DNA of 32,000 nt from Pseudomonadota bacterium. GTDB taxonomy: Bacteria > Pseudomonadota > Alphaproteobacteria > Caulobacterales > Hyphomonadaceae. Both the position numbers and the translations under genes were made by a program. Location of the stretch: positions 1-32,000 of the forward strand of contig JBCCAA010000026.1 of NCBI GenBank assembly GCA_039815055.1, given 5' to 3'. Every line of letters starts with the position of its first letter. The first letter of the stretch is position 1. Below, in pieces: positions 20,842 through 30,864 of this stretch. The notes beneath the pieces are model-generated. The model saw only the letters and a program-made list of their open reading frames with translations. It did not search any database and was not told the origin of the DNA.

Positions 20842-21534
20842 CTATTCGTCGCCAGACACTGTTCTGGCTTCTTCCGTATCAGCAATCTGATCGAAGGCCG
20901 TCTCAATGCGCTTGTTTGCGTAAAGCTCTGCTGTCATTTCCTCGATCTTGGCGATCAGGGCGTCAGACGAGCCGCGTGTGCGGTCCAGCAGTGCGATGAA
21001 CTGGGCGCGCTGTTCGATGGCGAGCCAGAGCAAATTGCCCTCAATGTTCAAGGCCACATCGACAACCTGGTACTCGCCATTGCGGTTCAAAACCCGCCAA
21101 CGTACGTCCATGGCCTGGCCATCGGCGCGTGGGATGCGAGTGTTGACGATGGAATCGCGCGCCGAACGGTCAACCGAGCCGAGCACTTCAACACGCTCTC
21201 CGCGATAGCTGTCCAGCTGGGCCTCATAAACGGCTAGCGCATAGGTGCGGAAAGCGTCCTGATAAGCCGCCGACTCAGCTTCGGTGAATTCACGGGCGTA
21301 GCGACCAATCACGAAGCGGGATACCGCACCCAGGTCGGTGAATTGGTCCATATATTCTTCGAACGCAGCTGTTCGCGCCGCGCTGTCCAGCGCAGGATCG
21401 TTCAGCGTGTTCAAAACGATGTTAGCATTCTCCTCGACATATGCCTCAGTGGCGACATCTGCGAGGGCGGGCGCGGCGGCCATGCTCATGGCCAGGCCGG
21501 AGAAAAGAAGTGCTTTCAGAGAAAAGCGGGTCAT
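20842..21534 (-). CDS. mlaC: MlaC/Ttg2D-family periplasmic phospholipid-binding protein
   Basis: Signal peptide ...AMSMAAAPALA. The pattern 'FEEYMDQFTDLGAVSRFVIGRYAREFT..E...YQDAFRTYALAVY...DVRWRVLNRNGEYQVVDVALNIEGNLLWLAIEQRAQF' is the Ttg2D pattern. Confidence 0.8.
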   Translation of the reverse strand: MTRFSLKALLFSGLAMSMAAAPALADVATEAYVEENANIVLNTLNDPALDSAARTAAFEEYMDQFTDLGAVSRFVIGRYAREFTEAESAAYQDAFRTYALAVYEAQLDSYRGERVEVLGSVDRSARDSIVNTRIPRADGQAMDVRWRVLNRNGEYQVVDVALNIEGNLLWLAIEQRAQFIALLDRTRGSSDALIAKIEEMTAELYANKRIETAFDQIADTEEARTVSGDE

Positions 21535-21563
21535 GGGTCTAAGTCCGGTTAAGTGTCGGTTGG

Positions 21564-22316
21564 TTACTCAAAATCATCAAAATCAGGCAAATTTTGGTAC
21601 GCATCTGGGTCTTCTTGCCCATTTCTGATCGCTGCATCGCGCTGGGCCGTGTACGTCCGGCGATATGCAATATAGGGCTCAGGCTGCTCGCGCAGCGCAA
21701 TCAGGGCATCATCAAGTGCAACCCTTGCATTCAGCGCGCCAAGAACGCCGCGGCCGATTGCGATGTTGTCATCCAGGTCTTCGTCACTCGCAAACTCTGT
21801 CCAGGTCAGTGGATCGAAGGCCGTGTCGACGCCGGACCCGACGGAGTCGCGAAGGTTCGAAGGTCCAAGAATCGGCAGCACGAGAAACGGTCCATCGGGC
21901 ACACCCCACACACCCAGCGTCTGACCAAAGTCCTCGCTGCGGTGCGGAAAGCCGTCGCCTTCCGCCAGATCAAACAGTCCCAGTCCTCCAAAAACTGTAT
22001 TCACTGTAAAGCGGTAGGCGGTGTTTCCAGCACCGTCGGCATCGCCCTGCAGAACATTATTCACAAAGATCACTGGATTGGACAGGTTGCGGAGAAAGTT
22101 GGATACGCCCTTGCGCGCAACGGCCGGGGTCGCGGCTTCGTATGCGCCTGCGACAGGACCGATAACCGCCTTGTCAGCGGCTTCGTTGAACGCAAACACA
22201 CCTCGGTTTACGGGTTCAAACGGATCGTAAACACCCTCATCGGTTGTGCCCTGTGTGCTGGCGCAAGCGCCGACAAACAAGGCTGCCGACAAACAAAGTG
22301 CAATATTGAAACGCAT
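21564..22316 (-). CDS. mlaA: MlaA/VacJ-family outer-membrane lipoprotein
   Basis: Lipobox FVGAC. DPFEPVNRGVFAFNE...NFLRNLSNPVIFVNNVLQG...RFTVNTVFGGLGLFD...EDFGQTLGVWGVPDGPFLVLPILGPSNLRD is the VacJ signature. Confidence 0.9.
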   Translation of the reverse strand: MRFNIALCLSAALFVGACASTQGTTDEGVYDPFEPVNRGVFAFNEAADKAVIGPVAGAYEAATPAVARKGVSNFLRNLSNPVIFVNNVLQGDADGAGNTAYRFTVNTVFGGLGLFDLAEGDGFPHRSEDFGQTLGVWGVPDGPFLVLPILGPSNLRDSVGSGVDTAFDPLTWTEFASDEDLDDNIAIGRGVLGALNARVALDDALIALREQPEPYIAYRRTYTAQRDAAIRNGQEDPDAYQNLPDFDDFE

Positions 22317-22363
22317 CGAGGGTACCCTATTGGCTCTTTGGCGATATCGGACTGTCCCGCCTG

Positions 22364-22418
22364 AACTGCAAGTGACTGGTTTGTGAAGAGTTTACGCAAC
22401 TGCAAGCGGAGTGGTTTC
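22364..22418. repeat. Imperfect ~20-bp direct repeat (two copies, 34-bp period) in the mlaA / arsR-MTase divergent region
   Basis: The copies are AACTGCAAGtGAcTGGTTTg (22364-22383) and AACTGCAAGcGGAgTGGTTTc (22398-22418). Confidence 0.4.
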
Positions 22419-22439
22419 GATGCCACAGACTTGCACATC

Positions 22440-22459
22440 ATATAAAAATATCTTTATAT
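22440..22459. promoter_or_regulatory. 20-bp AT-rich imperfect palindrome abutting the operon's first start codon, candidate ArsR-type operator
   Basis: In ATATAAAAAT|ATCTTTATAT the half-sites match 9/10 as an inverted repeat. It ends 6 nt before ATG 22466. Confidence 0.4.
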
Positions 22460-22465
22460 CTAGAA

Positions 22466-23449
22466 ATGAGTGAGGCGCTTACCCCAACCGTTAACAGACT
22501 GCGTGCCGCGGGCGAGCCGACACGCCTGCGAATTCTCGCGCTTTTGAGGTGCGGTGATCTCGCGGTTGGGGAGCTGGTCGACATTCTTGGCCTCAGCCAA
22601 CCGCGCCTGTCACACCAGCTGAAAGTGCTCACAAATGCCGGTTTGGTGACCCGTTTGCCGGAAGGGGCATGGGTGTTCTATCGGGCCAAAACCAAGGGAC
22701 CGTGCGCTGACCTTATCAACCTGGCTCTATCGCAAGCTGATCTCGAAAACAGCGTGTTTTTGAAGGATCGTCGGCAATTACAGGTGGTTTTAGATGACCG
22801 GGCCTCATCGGCCGCCTCCTATTTTGACTCCATCGCAGCCCATTGGGATGCCGAGCGCGCGCTGCATTATCCTGAAAGTGCCATCGAAGCCGCCATTCTC
22901 GAGATTGTGGGCGATGGACCGTTTGATCAGATTGTTGACCTCGGCACGGGCACTGGCCGGATACTGTCCCTGCTCGCGCCCCGGGCGAGGCAAGCCGAAG
23001 GGTTGGATCTGAGCCATCAGATGCTGACAGTGGCCCGAAGCAACCTTCTCAAAGCGGGGGTGACCAACGCCAATGTTCGTCATGGAGATGCGTGCATGGT
23101 GCCTTTCGAGGCATCCAGTGTTGATCTCGTGATCATTCATCAGGTGCTTCACTTTATCGTGAGACCAGCCCTGGCCATCGAAGAAGCTGCGCGGATCCTG
23201 CGCCCGGGCGGCCGTTTGGTGATCGTGGATTTTGCCCCGCACATGCTGGAGTTTCTGCGCAGCGACCACGGCCACCGCAGATTGGGCGTGGCTGATGAAG
23301 CGCTCGGAGAGTGGGCGCGCGGAACGGGGCTAACCTTCCGGCCCGTCAGACACTTCGAATCTCCCACAGAAACGGCAGGACTCGCCGTGAAAATCTGGAC
23401 GGCCCAACAGCCGACCGCCAACTTTCCGCAAAAAGAGGCTGCCGCATGA
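22466..23449 (+). CDS. ArsR/SmtB-type HTH fused to a class-I SAM-dependent methyltransferase domain
   Basis: N-terminal: EPTRLRILALLRCGDLAVGELVDILGLSQPRLSHQLKVLTNAGLV (ArsR HTH). C-terminal: VDLGTGTGRIL (SAM motif I) ...LRPGGRLVIVDF. Confidence 0.85.
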   Translation: MSEALTPTVNRLRAAGEPTRLRILALLRCGDLAVGELVDILGLSQPRLSHQLKVLTNAGLVTRLPEGAWVFYRAKTKGPCADLINLALSQADLENSVFLKDRRQLQVVLDDRASSAASYFDSIAAHWDAERALHYPESAIEAAILEIVGDGPFDQIVDLGTGTGRILSLLAPRARQAEGLDLSHQMLTVARSNLLKAGVTNANVRHGDACMVPFEASSVDLVIIHQVLHFIVRPALAIEEAARILRPGGRLVIVDFAPHMLEFLRSDHGHRRLGVADEALGEWARGTGLTFRPVRHFESPTETAGLAVKIWTAQQPTANFPQKEAAA

Positions 23450-24366
23450 GCAGATTGTCCGTCGCGCAGGCCCAGACGGCCAAGGCCCCAGACGTGTCCT
23501 TCGAGTTCTTCCCGCCGAAAACCGAAACCATGTCGGCAAGGCTCTGGGAGTGTGTGCGCCGCCTTGAGCCCATGTCGCCGCGCTTTGTGTCGGTGACGTA
23601 TGGCGCAGGCGGGTCCACGCGCGAACGCACCCATGACACAGTTCGCCGGCTTGCCGGTGAAACCACGCTCACGCCGGCGGCCCACCTCACCTGCGTCGGC
23701 GCAACCAAGGCAGACGTCCACGAGGTTGCAGAGGAATACTGGCAGGCCGGCGTCAAACACATCGTGGCCTTGCGCGGCGACAGCCAGGACGGCATGGGCG
23801 AGCCTTTCAAACCTCATCCCGGCGGCTATTCCGGCTCCGTTGAACTGGTTGCAGGTCTTCGCGCGCACCGCCCCGACCTCGGCAAAGTGTTTGAGGTGTC
23901 AGTTGCGTGCTACCCGGAGCAACACCCCGACAGCCGGGGCTGGGGCGGCGACATGGATGTTCTCAAGGCCAAACAGGATGCCGGGGCGGACCGGGCCATC
24001 ACGCAGTTTTTCTTTGAGCCGGACACATATTTCCGCTTTCTCGACCGTGTCCATGCCGCCGGGATCACCCTGCCGATCGTGCCGGGCATCATGCTACAAT
24101 CCAATTTCAAAGGGCTGCAGAAGATATCGAAACTCTGCAACGCGAACCTGCCAGACTGGCTGTGCACACTTTATGACGGGCTGGATGAAGACGACACGAT
24201 GCGCGACCTCATCACCGCCAATGTGGCTGCAGAACTCTGCCACCGTCTGGCGGAACAGGGCGTCGATGCGTTCCATTTCTACACGCTGAACCGGGCCAAT
24301 CTGGCACTTTCGACGTGCCACCTTCTGGGTCTCAAACCCGCACCAGTGCGCGAGGAGGCGGCGTGA
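23446..24366 (+). CDS. metF: 5,10-methylenetetrahydrofolate reductase
   Basis: VSFEFFPPKT...FVSVTYGAGGSTRERT...AHLTCVG...ALRGD...AITQFFF. ATG 23446 overlaps the upstream stop (ATGA). Confidence 0.92.
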   Translation: MSRLSVAQAQTAKAPDVSFEFFPPKTETMSARLWECVRRLEPMSPRFVSVTYGAGGSTRERTHDTVRRLAGETTLTPAAHLTCVGATKADVHEVAEEYWQAGVKHIVALRGDSQDGMGEPFKPHPGGYSGSVELVAGLRAHRPDLGKVFEVSVACYPEQHPDSRGWGGDMDVLKAKQDAGADRAITQFFFEPDTYFRFLDRVHAAGITLPIVPGIMLQSNFKGLQKISKLCNANLPDWLCTLYDGLDEDDTMRDLITANVAAELCHRLAEQGVDAFHFYTLNRANLALSTCHLLGLKPAPVREEAA

Positions 24367-25394
24367 TGGCGTCAATTCTGGAGCAACTTTCAGCGGAAGC
24401 CGAACGCCGTGTCCTGATCCTCGATGGTGCCATGGGCACACAGATTCAGGGCTTTGATTTTGATGAGGCCGCCTTTCGTGGCGAACGGTTTGCCGATTGG
24501 GGAAGGCCGCTCAAAGGCAATAATGATCTCCTGAACCTCACCCAGCCCGGCGCCATTCGCGCGATCCATGAGCGCTATATCGAGGCTGGCGCCGACCTGA
24601 TCGAAACCAATACGTTCAGCGCCACAACCATCGCCATGGCCGATTATGGCATGGAAGCTGAGGCCGATGACATAGCCGCCGAAGGGGCCCGGCTGGCGCG
24701 TGAAGCGGCTGATGCTTCGGGCCGCGCGGTTGCTGTGCTTGGCGCCATCGGGCCCACCAACAAGACCCTGTCCCTGAGCCCCGATGTGAACGACCCCGGC
24801 TTTCGAGAAGTGACGTTTGAAGATGTCCGCACGGCCTATGAAGCCCAGGTTCGGGCCATGGCACCGTTTGTTGATGCCTTGCTGATCGAAACGGTGTTCG
24901 ACACGCTGAATGCGAAAGCGGCGATAAAAGCGATTATTGACGCTGATTTGGGTTTGCCGATGATCATTTCCGGCACGATCACCGATGCGTCGGGTCGCAC
25001 GCTGTCCGGCCAGACAGCCGAAGCCTTCTGGTATTCGGTGCGCCACGCGCGGCCTTGGGCTGTGGGGTTGAACTGCGCGCTCGGCGCCGAGGCCATGCGC
25101 CCGCACATCGCGGCCATCTCCAAGATCGCCAATACGCGCATCATCGCTTACCCCAATGCGGGACTGCCGAACGCGTTTGGGGAGTATGATGAAACCCCGG
25201 ATGAGACATCGGCCATGCTGGGCGAGTGGGCAGCCGCTGGCCTGGTCAACATCCTCGGCGGCTGTTGTGGCACCACGCCAGACCATATCGAGGCGATCAC
25301 CAAAGCGGCCGCGGGCAAAGCGCCGCGGACGATTCCAAACCCCGCCGCGGCCATGCGTCTGTCCGGCCTCGAACCGTTTGAACTCGCCAGTTAG
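24366..25394 (+). CDS. metH: Methionine synthase, homocysteine-binding (Hcy S-methyltransferase) domain as a separate polypeptide
   Basis: [13 protein letters not shown]...LNLTQP...IETNTF. Both zinc-ligand contexts are present: GLNCALGA and [12 protein letters not shown]. The protein ends at the Hcy/pterin linker. ATG 24366 overlaps the metF stop (TGATG). Confidence 0.9.
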
Positions 25395-25404
25395 GAGCCG
25401 CGCC

Positions 25405-25959
25405 ATGGGCAAGACCTACGACCACCTCACCGACAAACTGGTTGAGTTTATCTCCGCCCAGAAAATGTTCTTCGTGGCGACCGCCCCGCTGTCGGGCGAC
25501 GGCCATGTGAATGTCAGCCCCAAGGGCTATGACGCATTCAAGATCATTGATCCGCTGACCGTTGCTTATCTCGACACGGGCGGCAGCGGCATCGAAACCC
25601 AGGCCCACGCCATCGAGAATGGCCGGGTCACGCTGATGTTTTGCGCCTTTGAAGGCGCGCCGCTGATCGTCCGGCTTTATGGCACCGCCACGGTGACCCA
25701 ATGGGATGAGCCAGGCTTTGCTGATTTGCTGGCGCTGTTTCCCGATTTCGAGAAAGCGCGCGGCGTGTTCACGATCAAGCTGCATCGCATCACCGATAGC
25801 TGCGGTTGGGGCGTGCCGTTCTATGATTTCCACGGCGAGCGCGACCAGCTCAAACGGTTCGCCACAAATCCGAATAAATCCCCCGAAGACTGGGCCGAGA
25901 AATGGCGCACCGGAAACGCGGTCAGTATCGATGGCCTGCCCGGCATCCGACAGCACTAG
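25405..25959 (+). CDS. Pyridoxamine-5'-phosphate-oxidase-like (FMN-binding split-barrel) family protein
   Basis: MGKTYDHLTDKLVEFISAQKMFFVATAPLSGDGHVNVSPKG...GRVTLMFCAF is typical of the PNPOx-like split-barrel family. An AGGAG RBS overlaps the metH-N stop. Confidence 0.75.
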   Translation: MGKTYDHLTDKLVEFISAQKMFFVATAPLSGDGHVNVSPKGYDAFKIIDPLTVAYLDTGGSGIETQAHAIENGRVTLMFCAFEGAPLIVRLYGTATVTQWDEPGFADLLALFPDFEKARGVFTIKLHRITDSCGWGVPFYDFHGERDQLKRFATNPNKSPEDWAEKWRTGNAVSIDGLPGIRQH

Positions 25960-25965
25960 GCCGCC

Positions 25966-26409
25966 ATGTCGCTTCCCTCCGTCTCAAAGGGCGATGCCTT
26001 CATCTTCTACGGCCTGTTGAAACAGGGCGCTGCGGGTATGCCAGGTCATATCGACTTGGAAACCGCCGGAACGTTTGAACACCCGTGCCGGTTTCGCGCA
26101 AAGATGTACGATTTGGGCGGCTTTCCGGGCGTGGTGGCCGGAGATACGCTCTGCCACGGCGTTATCTGGCGGATTAAGGATGTGTCCGTGTTGGCCGAAC
26201 TGGACGATTTTGAAGACGTCGTGCCCGGCAATCGCGAAAGATCGGTCTACTGGCGCGATACATGGCCAGTCCGTGACGATATGGGCACTGCAACCGGCGA
26301 AACTGCGCAGATTTACGTGTACCGTGCATCCCTCGAGGACTGGCCCCGGGTCGCAGATGGCAATTGGCCGCTCGGCAAAGGGCGCAGCCGGAAAATGGGA
26401 GATGTGTGA
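25966..26409 (+). CDS. Gamma-glutamylcyclotransferase / AIG2-like (GGACT) family protein
   Basis: FIFYGLLKQG...MYDLGGFPGVV...HGVIWRI...LAELDDFEDV is the YGxL...G.YP...E pattern of the GGCT-like fold. Confidence 0.7.
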   Translation: MSLPSVSKGDAFIFYGLLKQGAAGMPGHIDLETAGTFEHPCRFRAKMYDLGGFPGVVAGDTLCHGVIWRIKDVSVLAELDDFEDVVPGNRERSVYWRDTWPVRDDMGTATGETAQIYVYRASLEDWPRVADGNWPLGKGRSRKMGDV

Positions 26410-26759
26410 TGACTTATGTTGATGGATTTGTGCTGGCTGTGCCGACAGCCAACAAGCAGGCTTATCTCGACCATGCCAGGGATTGCGTGCCGATCTTCAA
26501 GAAATACGGCGCGCTGCGTTGCGTTGAAAACTGGGGCGTTGATGTGCCCGATGGTGAGACAACATCGTTTCCCATGGCGGTGAAGGCCGAGCCCGGCGAG
26601 ACTGTCATGTTCTCGTGGATCGTCTGGCCCTCAAAAGAAGCACGTGACACCGGCATGGAAGCGCTGATGAAAGACCCCTTCTTTGCCCAGGACATGGACA
26701 TGCCGTTTGACGGCAAACGCATGATTTTCGGCAGTTTCGAGACGATTTTGGACGCCTAA
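26409..26759 (+). CDS. DUF1428-family small protein
   Basis: [43 protein letters not shown]...[13 protein letters not shown]...[13 protein letters not shown] matches my recollection of DUF1428. The start overlaps the upstream stop (TGATG). Confidence 0.7.
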
Positions 26760-29389
26760 TGACCACAACCACCGCCACCTTCGTCAATATTGGCGAACGC
26801 ACCAACGTGACCGGTTCGGCACGCTTCAAGAAGCTCATCCTCAACGGGGATTACCCCGCAGCCGTCGAGGTGGCCCGCCAGCAGGTGGAAAACGGCGCCC
26901 AGATCATTGATGTGAACATGGATGAGGGGATGCTGGACGGCGCCGTGGCCATGACCACATTCCTGAATCTCATCGCCGCCGAGCCCGACATCGCCCGTGT
27001 GCCGGTGATGGTCGACAGCTCCAAATGGGAGGTGATCGAGGCCGGCCTGAAATGCGTGCAAGGCAAGGCGGTGGTGAACTCGATCTCCCTGAAAGAAGGC
27101 GAGGAGAGTTTCATCAAACAGGCGCGCACCTGCATGGCCTATGGCGCAGCGGTAGTGGTGATGGCGTTTGACGAGGATGGCCAGGCCGACACGGCGCCGC
27201 GCAAGATCGAAATCTGTCAGCGCGCCTATGAAATTTTGACGAAAACGGTTGGAATCGAGCCTGAAGACGTCATTTTCGACCCGAATATCTTCGCCGTCGC
27301 GACCGGCATCGAAGAGCACAACACCTACGCCCTCGACTTTATAGAGGCCGCGCGGGAGATCCGCCGAACCTGCCCTGGCGCCCACATTTCCGGTGGCTTG
27401 TCGAACATCAGCTTCAGCTTTCGCGGCAATGAGCCTGTGCGCCGGGCCATGCATTCGGTGTTTCTGTATCACGCCATTCCGGCGGGCATGGATATGGGCA
27501 TCGTCAATGCTGGCCAGCTGGACATCTATGACGAGATCGAGCCAGACCTGCGCGAGCGGGTTGAGGATGTAATCCTGAACCGCTCAGACAATGCCACAGA
27601 CCGCCTGATCGAGATTGCCGAGAAATTTCGAGGCCAAAAGGGCAAAACGGCGGAGAAAGACACGAAATGGCGCGAATTGGCGGTCGAAGCCCGGCTTCAA
27701 CACGCCCTCGTCAACGGCATTCTCGACCATATCGTGGAGGATACCGAAGAGGCCCGCCAAACCCGCGAGCGTCCGCTGCATGTCATCGAAGGCCCGCTCA
27801 TGGACGGGATGAATGTGGTCGGCGACCTGTTCGGGTCCGGCAAGATGTTCCTGCCCCAGGTGGTGAAATCGGCCCGCGTCATGAAGGCCGCTGTGGCCCA
27901 TCTTGAACCCTTCATGGAAGAGGAAAAACAGCGCATGGGGCTGGTTGATCAGTCCAATGGCAAGATTGTTCTCGCCACGGTGAAGGGCGATGTCCACGAC
28001 ATCGGCAAGAACATTGTTGGCGTCGTGCTGGCCTGTAACGGCTACGATATTCTCGATCTGGGTGTCATGGTGCCGGCCGAGAAAATCTTGCAGACAGCCC
28101 TGGAAGAGGGCGCGGACATGGTCGGCTTGTCCGGCCTGATCACGCCGTCGCTGGATGAAATGGTCTATGTCGCCGCCGAGATGGAACGGCGCGGCATGCA
28201 TATGCCCCTGCTGATCGGCGGGGCGACCACCAGCCCGGCCCATACGGCAGTAAAGATCGAACCGGTCTACGATCGCGGTCCGGTCATCCATGTCACGGAT
28301 GCGTCGCGCGCGGTGGGCACCGTTGGCGCGCTGATGAGTGATGAGGAGCGTCCGGCTTATTGGGAGGCCGCCAAGGCGCGCTATCAACGCATGCGTGACG
28401 ACCGAGCCGGCGCTAAGACGAAACCGCGCCTGCCACTCGAAAAGGCACGTGAAAACGCTTTTTCAGCGGGGGAATCGCCATCTGCGCCCCCACCGAGCTT
28501 CACAGGGGTGCGCACGTTTGACGATTTTGATCTGGCCGAACTCACCCAATACATCGACTGGACCCCCTATTTCGCAAGCTGGGATCTGGCGGGCCGCTTC
28601 CCACAAATTCTGGACGATGAGGTGGTCGGCGTCGCAGCAACAGACTTGTGGGCGGAGACCCAGGCCATGCTGCAGCGGATCATCGGCGAGCAGTGGTTCA
28701 AACCCAAGGCCGTGATCGGCTTCTGGGGCGCACGGCCCGATGGCGACGACATCCAGCTGGAAACAGGCGGTCGCCTCCACACCTTGCGCCAGCAGATCGT
28801 GAAAACCAATGAAAAGCCGAACTTCGCCCTTTCCGACTTTCTTTCCGCCGACGACGATCACATCGGTGCGTTTTGCGTCACGTCGGGGCCCGAAGCCGAT
28901 GTGTTGGCCAAGGAATTTGAGGCCGCGGGCGATGACTACCAGGCCATTATGGTGAAGGCTCTGGCCGACCGGTTTGCCGAGGCCATGGCCGAGATGATGC
29001 ATGCGCGCGTGCGACGCGAACTGTGGGGTTATGCGGCAGATGAAGGTCTCGATAATGAGGCGCTGATCAAGGAAAAATACCGTGGCATCCGCCCCGCGCC
29101 CGGCTATCCGGCCCAGCCCGATCACACGGAAAAAGAATTGATATTCAAACTGCTAGAAGCTGAAGATCGCATTGGCGTGTCGCTGACCACCAGTTTCGCC
29201 ATGGACCCGGCGCCCAGCGTGTCAGGGCTCTATTTCGCTCACCCGGACAGCGTCTATTTCGCCGTCGGCCGGATCGAGCGCGACCAGATCGCCGACTATG
29301 CCGCCAGAAAGGGCTGGGACATGCGCACCACCGAACGCTGGCTCGCACCGATCCTGAACTATGACCCTTATGCGCGGGAGGCGGGGTAG
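26759..29389 (+). CDS. metH: Methionine synthase, pterin-binding + B12-binding + AdoMet-activation domains
   Basis: It starts at the pterin domain ([20 protein letters not shown]). The cobalamin motifs are [10 protein letters not shown] (DxHxxG), SGLITPS and LLIGGATTS. The activation domain shows [15 protein letters not shown] 26759 overlaps the upstream TAA (TAATG). Confidence 0.95.
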
Positions 29390-29472
29390 AGACCGAGAAA
29401 GATTTTCTGTCATCTTTACAGTTCGCTAGTCTCACTGCGCTACGGTGGAGGGCTGTTGAATTGTGAAGGTCC

Positions 29473-29982
29473 ATGCTGACACGCATTCAGACAAAGACGT
29501 CGGCGAAGCACTCAATCGGGCAAAAAGTGCTCGGACTTGCAGTGGCATCAATTGTTGCGATCCTCGGTTGCGCATTGGTGCCCGTATCTCATGACTCCAT
29601 CTCGTGATTCTTGACCGGCTTGGAAACTGGTGGATGGAATTACGATTATTGGACGGACCTTCTTGATTTTGTTGTCATGGTCATCCTAGTCGGATCACCT
29701 TTCACAGCGTTTGTCATTTTTCCGATTGGCTGGCTGATGTGGCGGCATCAAGAGATGCGGGGAACAGTATCCTATGGGACGGCCTGGCGAATCGGATCGC
29801 TCGGCGGTGTCCTGATCGGCACGGTCATACTTGGTTTCGGTCTTTATCTCGTGACGTTTGGTGATGTGACAGACAAGCTAGGCGTATTTCTCGCTTGTAC
29901 TCTTTGGGGTGCCATGATGGTGCCAGTAGGTTTTTTTGTTGGAATTTCAGCACTTTTCGCAGCCGGCCAGCCTAAAGTTTGA
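29473..29982 (+). pseudogene. Membrane protein gene interrupted by one in-frame TGA (29605-29607)
   Basis: ATG 29473 encodes MLTRIQTKTSAKHSIGQKVLGLAVASIVAILGCALVPVSHDSIS followed by TGA. The same frame continues F-L-TGLETGGWNYDYW... into the listed 123-aa multi-TM ORF (29611-29982), which otherwise has only a TTG start and no SD. Confidence 0.45.
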
Positions 29983-30042
29983 GTTACCAACATATTCATG
30001 AAATTCGCTTATGCCTTATGCCCTAGTTGAGCGGGTAAGAGG

Positions 30043-30864
30043 ATGTATTTGGCGTTCCGGATTGGGAGCATATTTGCGCTGTTTGCGCTGGCGATCCTAT
30101 GTGCGCTGGCCCTGGCCGCGTTGGTTGATGCCTCCGGTAGTCATGATCTGCGTTCTGTTCGCGTGGCCGCGGTGGCTGGATGGGGCGCTGACTTCGAGAT
30201 GCTCTTCCGGGACCTGTTCGCACCCGCTCTCGATGGCGCGGCGGGCGCGCTTTCTGAAGCGTTGGGTACAGAGTTTGAAACCAACCGCCGCAGCGGACTT
30301 TTCATCCTGCTTGGCCTGATCCTGTTCCTGCCCTGGCTGCGGGCGAATGCGTACAAAGGTGGGCTTCGCCCGTCACTCTTCACAGCGCTGTTCATGGGCG
30401 GGCTCGCTTCTGTCGCAGTCGTCATCGCGACGGCTCTGGACTGGCCGGGCGATGTGTTTAATCGTGGGCTGATCACGGGCGTGCTCATCGGCCTGCCTTT
30501 CATCGGGCTGGCGATCAGCAATGTGTTCTACCATCTGGCCCGCAAGGAAAAGACGGGCTTTTCCTTCAGTATGGGCTGGGAGCGGGGCATCGCCGCGGTG
30601 ATCTATTTCACGGTCGCACTTGGGGCCGCCTCCCTCATGGAACTCACCGCCAGCAGTTCCGCCTATGCCTGGGTGCTGACCCTTTCGCTCATGCTGCTCA
30701 TCATCGGCGCTGTGGAGGTCCACACCAGCCAGTATCGCGGCCAGCAGCAGGATGTGTTTCGCGGCGCTGGGCTGGTCCTCATCGCTATTCCCGTCACAAC
30801 CTGGCTTGTCTTTGTGGCCGATTGGATGATCCTGATCGGCATGCTTCCAGGGGAAACCATCTGA
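30043..30864 (+). CDS. Polytopic membrane protein, hypothetical (273 aa)
   Basis: TAAGAGG RBS. About seven hydrophobic segments. I recognise no motif. Confidence 0.65.
   Translation: MYLAFRIGSIFALFALAILCALALAALVDASGSHDLRSVRVAAVAGWGADFEMLFRDLFAPALDGAAGALSEALGTEFETNRRSGLFILLGLILFLPWLRANAYKGGLRPSLFTALFMGGLASVAVVIATALDWPGDVFNRGLITGVLIGLPFIGLAISNVFYHLARKEKTGFSFSMGWERGIAAVIYFTVALGAASLMELTASSSAYAWVLTLSLMLLIIGAVEVHTSQYRGQQQDVFRGAGLVLIAIPVTTWLVFVADWMILIGMLPGETI

Follow-up and report, generated by a model that had tools for sequence, protein, structure and literature searches.

A probable guest-accepting junction between the two halves of a split metH in the putatively SahR-controlled operon of a marine Hyphomonadaceae bacterium

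In the first 32,000 nucleotides of contig JBCCAA010000026.1 (assembly GCA_039815055.1), the whole stretch of DNA analyzed here and referred to below as the window, the methionine synthase MetH is encoded by two genes, metH_N and metH_C, with three small genes lying between them. These encode a pyridoxamine 5'-phosphate oxidase-like (PNPOx-like) protein, a GGACT/AIG2-like protein, and a DUF1428 protein. The host is a marine Hyphomonadaceae bacterium represented by a metagenome assembly of 182 contigs, its genome being 98% complete. The open reading frames (ORFs) read from the sequence form a tight array of seven genes on the plus strand (sahR-like, metF, metH_N, PNPOx-like, GGACT-like, DUF1428, metH_C), each of them present in the genome as a single copy. 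Overall, the locus is a SahR-controlled sahR–metF–metH operon typical of the order Caulobacterales (GTDB).

The array is preceded by a SahR-type operator, the 20-bp palindrome ATATAAAAATATCTTTATAT (22440–22459), which ends 6 nt before the start of the regulator gene (22466–23449). The product of the latter is a fusion of an ArsR winged helix (Pfam HTH_5, residues 18–62; NCBIfam HTH_metalloreg) and an S-adenosylmethionine (SAM)-methyltransferase-like domain (Methyltransf_11, residues 157–253, matched also by Methyltransf_25 and Methyltransf_31). Next comes metF, the gene of methylenetetrahydrofolate reductase (23446–24366; PF02219, 1e-87; TIGR00676, 311.7 bits, above the cut-off). Its likely start is the ATG at 23446 with AAAAAGAGG before it, and alignments with relatives begin only at query residue ~20–62; the longest metF ORF runs from a GTG at 23311, which would give an overlap of 139 nt with the regulator gene. 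Next, metH_N encodes the homocysteine-binding (Zn) domain of MetH (24366–25394, 342 aa; PF02574, S-methyl_trans, 1e-93), followed by the genes of the PNPOx-like split-barrel protein (25405–25959, 184 aa; PF01243, 40 bits), the GGACT/AIG2-like (YtfP-like) protein (25966–26409, 147 aa; PF06094, 1.2e-12, 48.9 bits), and the DUF1428 protein, a YbaA homolog (26409–26759, 116 aa; PF07237, 7e-43, 145 bits). The array is completed by metH_C (26759–29389, 876 aa; Pterin_bind, B12-binding_2, B12-binding, Met_synt_B12). The ORFs and their Pfam/NCBIfam assignments agree with the five-gene anatomy, from metH_N to metH_C, described in an initial annotation of this DNA made from the letters alone.

The junctions between metH_N and metH_C are likewise as that annotation had them: an AGGAG overlaps the TAG stop of metH_N, and the ATG of the PNPOx-like gene follows 10 nt past the stop; a gap of 6 nt separates the PNPOx-like and GGACT genes; and the stop and start overlap as TGATG at the GGACT/DUF1428 junction and as TAATG at the DUF1428/metH_C junction. 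Upstream of them, metF and metH_N overlap by TGATG (24364–24368) and sahR and metF by ATGA (23446–23449), the latter being an addition to the earlier description. The G+C content is even over the three inserts, a consensus scan of the operon revealed no promoter-like or terminator-like sites beyond the shuffled-sequence expectation, and no riboswitch or other Rfam element was found in 21500–30500. Judging from the packing, one S-adenosylhomocysteine (SAH)-responsive mRNA would carry all seven genes, and the overlapping junctions would be translationally coupled.

SahR is a SAH-responsive repressor of the methyl cycle, and its core regulon in Caulobacterales, Sphingomonadales, and Rhodobacterales includes metH and metH2 (PMC4239095). 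Of 72 related loci, ~60 carry the operator box, with the consensus ATATAAAGATATCTTTATAT, ahead of the gene of the regulator, and when the genome was scanned with a matrix derived from these boxes, no site scored higher than the box of the window (38.7 bits). Only two sites of the genome exceed 22 bits, namely the window operator and a box of 22.5 bits, ATATCAAAGTTCCTTTATAT, at the start of ahcY, the S-adenosylhomocysteine hydrolase gene (genome G000, contig C76, 32461–32480; locus L190, 2962–2981), which is known to belong to the core of the SahR regulon (PMC4239095).

The two MetH genes cover positions 8–354 (metH_N) and 356–1233 (metH_C, 1467.7 bits) of the full-length model NF007024; therefore, no part of MetH is missing. 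Both Zn-ligand motifs of the homocysteine half, called intact in the initial annotation, are in place, with Cys237 in LNCALG and Cys300/Cys301 in GGCCGT. The other half comprises the pterin-binding domain (PF00809), the B12 cap (PF02607), the B12-binding domain (PF02310), and the AdoMet activation domain (PF02965), with DVHDIG at residue 411 (His413) representing the DxHxxG motif and RPAPGY at residue 778 the AdoMet motif RxxxGY. By non-covalent assembly, the two polypeptides would make up an enzyme in which all five modules are represented.

The frequency of such a split was estimated in 201 genomes with a completeness of at least 90%. They were sampled from Caulobacterales in the GTDB sense, an order uniting Hyphomonadaceae, Maricaulaceae, Caulobacteraceae, and their relatives. 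All 201 genomes gave a MetH match, and a separate strong match of the homocysteine half was obtained in 195 of them, its ORF being 342–691 aa long where listed. The apparent full-length MetH matches (n = 26) had an in-frame stop in every case, leaving N-half open frames of 355–473 aa, and in both of those that were examined (n = 2), the halves proved to be separate ORFs that abut and share one frame. Hence, metH cut at the homocysteine/pterin boundary is universal across the sampled genomes of the order, and this universality suggests that the two MetH polypeptides would form an active assembly. The split by itself is not special to this bacterium, in line with the earlier remark that split metH is known from alphaproteobacteria: the metH/metH2 pair has been published in SahR regulons (PMC4239095).

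In one family of the order (f6), the halves are situated far apart or on separate contigs in 27 sampled genomes (G147, G152, G171, G029, G072, and others), the operon order being sahR–metF–(guest)–metH_C with metH_N elsewhere (loci L021, L025, L049, L054, L102, L106). It follows that co-translation of the two MetH polypeptides, assumed in the initial annotation, is not needed. Within Hyphomonadaceae (loci L013–L067), the identity of metH_C to that of the window is fairly even (69–88%); the identities of metH_N fall into groups of ~56–61%, 67–74%, and 80–86%, which do not track those of the PNPOx-like protein. Pairwise identities of metH_N, PNPOx, and metH_C products correlate moderately (0.45–0.65); therefore, the operon is a mosaic, and the independent events behind the linkage are perhaps few. 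Judging from these sequence comparisons, the two MetH halves seem to be exchanged independently of each other.

The new element of this work is a survey of the junction between the metH halves. According to our comparison of the printed coordinates of both halves, one of which is missing in about one-third of the genomes, the halves are at most 60 nt apart in ~54 operons and 100–350 nt apart in ~9, with space for one gene between them in ~31 and for two or more genes in ~11. Thus, at least one guest gene resides between the halves in ~40% of the operons keeping the halves together. By Pfam, the guests belong to the PNPOx-like, GGACT, DUF1428, DUF4259, SAM methyltransferase, RidA, PIN, LysE, GNAT, KptA/Tpt1, and DUF6882 families, and some guest ORFs lack any Pfam match; DUF4259 and SAM methyltransferases of ~230 aa recur in several lineages. 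In our reading, the inter-half junction is a permissive slot, where small genes belonging to a dozen unrelated families have settled time and again. No description of this slot, or of a linkage between PNPOx-like genes and metH, was found in the open full-text literature.

Among individual guests, SAM-dependent methyltransferases of ~230–300 aa occur in at least two families (L016:9450–10145, L026:8305–9219, L192:76–768, L193:517–1209), and DUF4259 recurs at L099 and L191. PIN-domain toxins were encountered in two unrelated genomes (L056:7261–7656, L192:770–1219), each with a small upstream ORF, which may be an antitoxin; these toxin genes sit within an essential biosynthetic gene pair, the MetH halves.

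Designating the halves N and C and the PNPOx-like, GGACT, and DUF1428 genes P, G, and D, the commonest gene orders were N–P–C (23 loci), N–P–D–C (13), N–P–G–C (9), and N–G–P–C (7); in genomes lacking a PNPOx ortholog, the halves abut or are arranged as N–G–C. The order of the window, N–P–G–D–C, is common to one other locus, from the same genus. Accordingly, the idea that the three inserts recur together at metH loci stands for the PNPOx-like gene, which does recur at metH_C, and fails for the trio, which is not a unit.

Orthologs of the PNPOx-like gene (at least 54% identity) were detected in 60 of the 201 genomes, and 18 more contained a weaker paralog (41–47%). Of the 55 loci that were fetched, 31, representing five GTDB families, have the ortholog directly 5' of metH_C, and 24 have it elsewhere. 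The named loci, for which genome contigs were scanned with a profile built from 10 close sequences, agree with this, the gene being immediately 5' of metH_C in ~40 of 80. Linked carriers include the cultured Henriciella aquimarina, H. marina, H. barbarensis, and Hyphomonas sp. FCG-A18, and Caulobacter metagenome-assembled genomes are also among the named loci; in Ponticaulis, the PNPOx-like gene is found beside metH_N, with no metH_C within 4 kb. The orthologs of the order make up a single clade of the protein tree (92 in the Shimodaira–Hasegawa-like approximate likelihood ratio test); within this clade, linked members are mixed with unlinked ones, and the families do not come out as monophyletic.

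The unlinked orthologs have heterogeneous neighbors, e.g., purB, folE with ribH, panB, rsmD, or a gene of the metallo-beta-lactamase fold. No SahR box was detected in the 635 kb scanned around 58 unlinked loci (45 with an ortholog from within the order and 13 with a homolog from outside it), and the best box score within 1.5 kb upstream of the 45 orthologs was 5.3 bits, i.e., the level of random windows. Homologs of 39–55% identity had no met genes nearby in 28 loci of other alphaproteobacteria or in 13 loci of other phyla, and a search for neighbors conserved around the homologs outside the order gave none. Two alphaproteobacterial genomes of 1.4 Mb (G263 and G410, 96–97% complete) possess a 42–43%-identical homolog and no MetH match.

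The whole family amounts to 2592 clusters at E ≤ 0.001, annotated only as 'pyridoxamine 5'-phosphate oxidase family protein'. Its fusion partners are heterogeneous (tandem duplication, CBS with PB1, radical SAM, glyoxalase, GNAT), and no clue to MetH was found among these domain fusions. In the protein from the window, PF01243 covers residues 8–108 only, with no other Pfam domain and no match to the C-terminal PNPOx dimerization region. Its identity with PdxH was considered and rejected, TIGR00558 matching another gene, on contig C27 (242.9 bits).

Neither the single protein nor a 38-sequence profile retrieved a significant relative from the PDB by sequence. The AlphaFold2 model (mean predicted local distance difference test score 91.9) yielded 78 PDB matches in Foldseek at E ≤ 0.001, the best 50 of the 78 being all split-barrel proteins; the model therefore indicates a split-barrel fold and not a flavodoxin fold. 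The best matches, the flavin mononucleotide (FMN)-binding protein of Desulfovibrio vulgaris (1axj, 1wlk), the COG3576 protein 2htd, and Streptococcus HupZ (5esc, 7kpz), share the core fold with a probability of 1.00 and a template-modeling score of 0.78–0.85 relative to the target, and the predicted cofactor pocket is, as in these proteins, at the dimer interface. At the same time, the identity to them is merely 18–23%, the protein from the window bears a C-terminal extension of ~55 residues without a counterpart in them, and the motifs of its family, NxSPKG, GSGxETxAH, and DSCGxGVP, have not been described for them. The invariant columns (N36, S38, G60, E64, I88, C133, G134, V137) are those touching FMN in the predicted dimer–ligand model, in which FMN scored 0.72 against 0.63 for the deoxyadenosine triphosphate (dATP) control, the tool giving no verdict on which ligand binds. 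Taken together, these models suggest that the PNPOx-like protein is probably a flavin-binding dimer. The cysteine of DSCGxGVP (C133), located in the predicted cofactor pocket, is invariant and that of MFCAF (C80) nearly so, which is unusual for split-barrel flavoproteins.

The other two guests are confined to Hyphomonadaceae (family f1). The GGACT gene occurs before or after the PNPOx-like gene or alone between the halves. Its product carries YGLL at residues 15–18 and LDDFED at residues 79–84, corresponding to YGxL and LDxxE-type acidic motifs, which we take to be diagnostic of the GGACT/AIG2-like family, and it weakly matches Escherichia coli YtfP (1xhs), i.e., at the family level. The match of the DUF1428 protein is full-length (profile positions 1–102 of 102), and E. 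coli YbaA (2okq, E 6e-39) is its clear homolog. In all of its 19 linked loci, the DUF1428 gene stands after the PNPOx-like gene and directly before metH_C; inside operons, it only ever follows the PNPOx-like gene directly (19/19). YbaA and YtfP themselves are without an established function or known link to methionine synthesis, and YbaA was still called uncharacterised in a 2025 preprint. In a Phycisphaerales metagenome-assembled genome (L179:4001–5056), a 53%-identical PNPOx-like gene adjoins a DUF1428 gene in the convergent orientation; such neighbors in a distant phylum may reflect chance or hint at a functional pair. Overall, GGACT and DUF1428 are variable, lineage-specific passengers.

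The reading favored here, with a probability of roughly 0.55, is that the locus represents the known sahR–metF–split metH operon type, whose inter-half junction captures guest genes; the guests are not obligatory, and the PNPOx-like protein is merely co-regulated with MetH. The three guests of the window would, accordingly to this reading, be co-expressed with MetH without being its obligatory components, and the PNPOx-like protein, a member of a widespread, stand-alone family, would most likely exert a general flavin-dependent redox function. Its distribution argues against a dedicated MetH partner: 24 of the 55 orthologs are unlinked, and none of the 41 homolog loci outside the order has met genes nearby. 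Since a PIN toxin, KptA, and LysE also occur in the slot, position alone is weak evidence of function. A facultative contribution of the PNPOx-like protein to keeping the cobalamin of MetH reduced would be compatible with this reading, and the protein is a legitimate, if unproven, candidate for a MetH-related redox role.

Several observations weigh against the favored reading. No other guest persists nearly as well as the PNPOx-like gene, and its position is very specific: in five families it lies just 5' of metH_C, or only GGACT or DUF1428 intervenes, and in family f6 it is kept with metH_C though metH_N has moved off. Several other guests (SAM methyltransferases, RidA, GNAT, LysE) could plausibly serve the methyl cycle; therefore, the slot may collect useful rather than random genes. 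The reductant of MetH is left unaccounted for, because neither flavodoxin nor a RACo/DUF4445 activase was found in the host genome. The incomplete coordinates behind the slot survey count here as well.

Alternatively, the guests could be accessory enzymes of the methyl cycle, placed under SahR to handle by-products at SAH build-up and not acting on MetH, e.g., oxidized folates or pterins in the case of the PNPOx-like protein and gamma-glutamyl compounds in that of GGACT. Such a function, which is possible though unlikely, is in line with the SAM- and methionine-related guests of other genomes, where SAM methyltransferases, RidA, GNAT, and LysE-type exporters recur, and with the occurrence of GGACT at two positions and also alone between the halves, which suggests repeated recruitment; moreover, some unlinked PNPOx orthologs neighbor the folate- or flavin-related genes folE and ribH or panB. 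However, none of the three guest families has a known substrate, the genes around the unlinked orthologs lack conservation and for the most part bear no relation to one another, these orthologs lack the SahR box, and the PIN toxins and KptA demonstrate that unrelated genes land in the slot too.

A further proposal, raised as plausible in the initial annotation, casts the PNPOx-like flavoprotein as the protein that would supply the electrons for reductive reactivation of MetH in the cell, in the place held by flavodoxin in E. coli. Cob(II)alamin would be reduced directly or via released reduced flavin, and its methylation by AdoMet would pull the reaction. Split-barrel flavin reductases, e.g., CobR of Brucella, reduce Co(II) corrinoids, and the fold of the PNPOx-like protein is nearest to small FMN-binding split-barrel redox proteins, its invariant residues lining the predicted flavin pocket. 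The gene is conserved directly upstream of the half with the B12 and activation domains, and flavin-reductase-like genes (PF01613, PF03358) appear in other methionine regulons. The host genome, for which a check of flavodoxin had been suggested, gave no match of PF00258 or of TIGR01752 (long-chain flavodoxin), nor a homolog of RACo/DUF4445 or RamA, so it appears to be devoid of both flavodoxin and a RACo-type activase.

Nevertheless, direct support for this role was lacking, and we consider it rather improbable. About 70% of the genomes of the order contain the same split MetH and no PNPOx ortholog, the unlinked orthologs are without a SahR box, whereas the unlinked ahcY keeps its own, and the homologs outside the order are never located beside metH (28 + 13 loci). 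The PNPOx-like gene and flavodoxin did not replace one another cleanly in the genus tallies, some genera having neither and others both; in genera g15 and g27 (21 genomes), with no flavodoxin-domain match, the PNPOx-like gene was present in only one genome. Within the order, what PF00258 matches is for the most part a domain of some large reductase or, weakly, a WrbA-like protein. With FMN scored at 0.72 and the dATP control at 0.63, the cofactor is unproven. The prediction of a complex between the PNPOx dimer and MetH_C residues 390–876 gave an ipSAE score of 0.00 in three runs; this weighs little, since transient pairs often fail in such predictions and a transient electron-transfer pair would not be expected to score, and by the tool's own statement, it is no evidence against binding. 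Nothing linking split-barrel or PNPOx-like proteins to MetH reactivation was found in the open full-text literature.

The remaining explanation, that the arrangement is an artefact of assembly or binning, or that the genes were inserted recently and by chance in this one metagenome-assembled genome, draws on the fragmentation of the assembly and on the presence of the stretch in only one DNA run, but it is already contradicted by related loci with the same or very similar gene orders, including complete genomes and cultured strains, as well as by the even G+C content and the overlapping, streamlined junctions, and is, therefore, highly improbable; the inserts are not absent from all related metH loci, which the initial annotation had named as the mark of a chance insertion.

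The junction of a split essential gene behaving as a capture site for unrelated genes calls for caution: tight packing and translational coupling at such a junction do not alone show a shared function. At the same time, a conserved flavoprotein gene inside the operon of MetH itself offers a cheap, testable candidate for the reduction of MetH in bacteria devoid of flavodoxin; if the candidate proved true, it would add a third kind of partner for MetH reactivation to those of the flavodoxin/MTRR type and the RamA/RACo type. The universal homocysteine/pterin split and the seemingly separate histories of the halves may also interest students of the assembly and movement of MetH modules.

The operon as a whole resembles the SahR-controlled metF–metH/metH2 operons documented by Leyn et al. 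in 2014 (PMC4239095) in having the regulator of the ArsR type with a SAM-methyltransferase-like domain as the first gene, the palindromic operator upstream of it, then metF and a two-gene MetH, and a box at the unlinked ahcY. In contrast to the window, the text and supplementary tables of that study list no PNPOx-like, GGACT, or DUF1428 members and describe no guests between the metH genes.

In comparison with MetH of E. coli, a single polypeptide of 1227 aa, all five modules and the key motifs are likewise present in the window, distributed over two genes. The E. coli enzyme is reactivated by flavodoxin together with ferredoxin(flavodoxin)-NADP reductase, whereas no flavodoxin was detected in the genome carrying the window. 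Modules spread over separate genes are also known from the split MetH of Thermotoga (TM0268/TM0269) and Bacteroides (BT0180/BT0249) and from the three-part MetH of Phaeobacter, the last one accompanied by a RamA-like activase and DUF1638 (PMC5764234); in such systems, gene context or fitness data have led to proposals of accessory proteins that reactivate B12. What is separated there is the activation domain or the B12 module, whereas the cut in the window falls between the homocysteine and pterin domains and leaves the activation domain fused to the rest of the enzyme.

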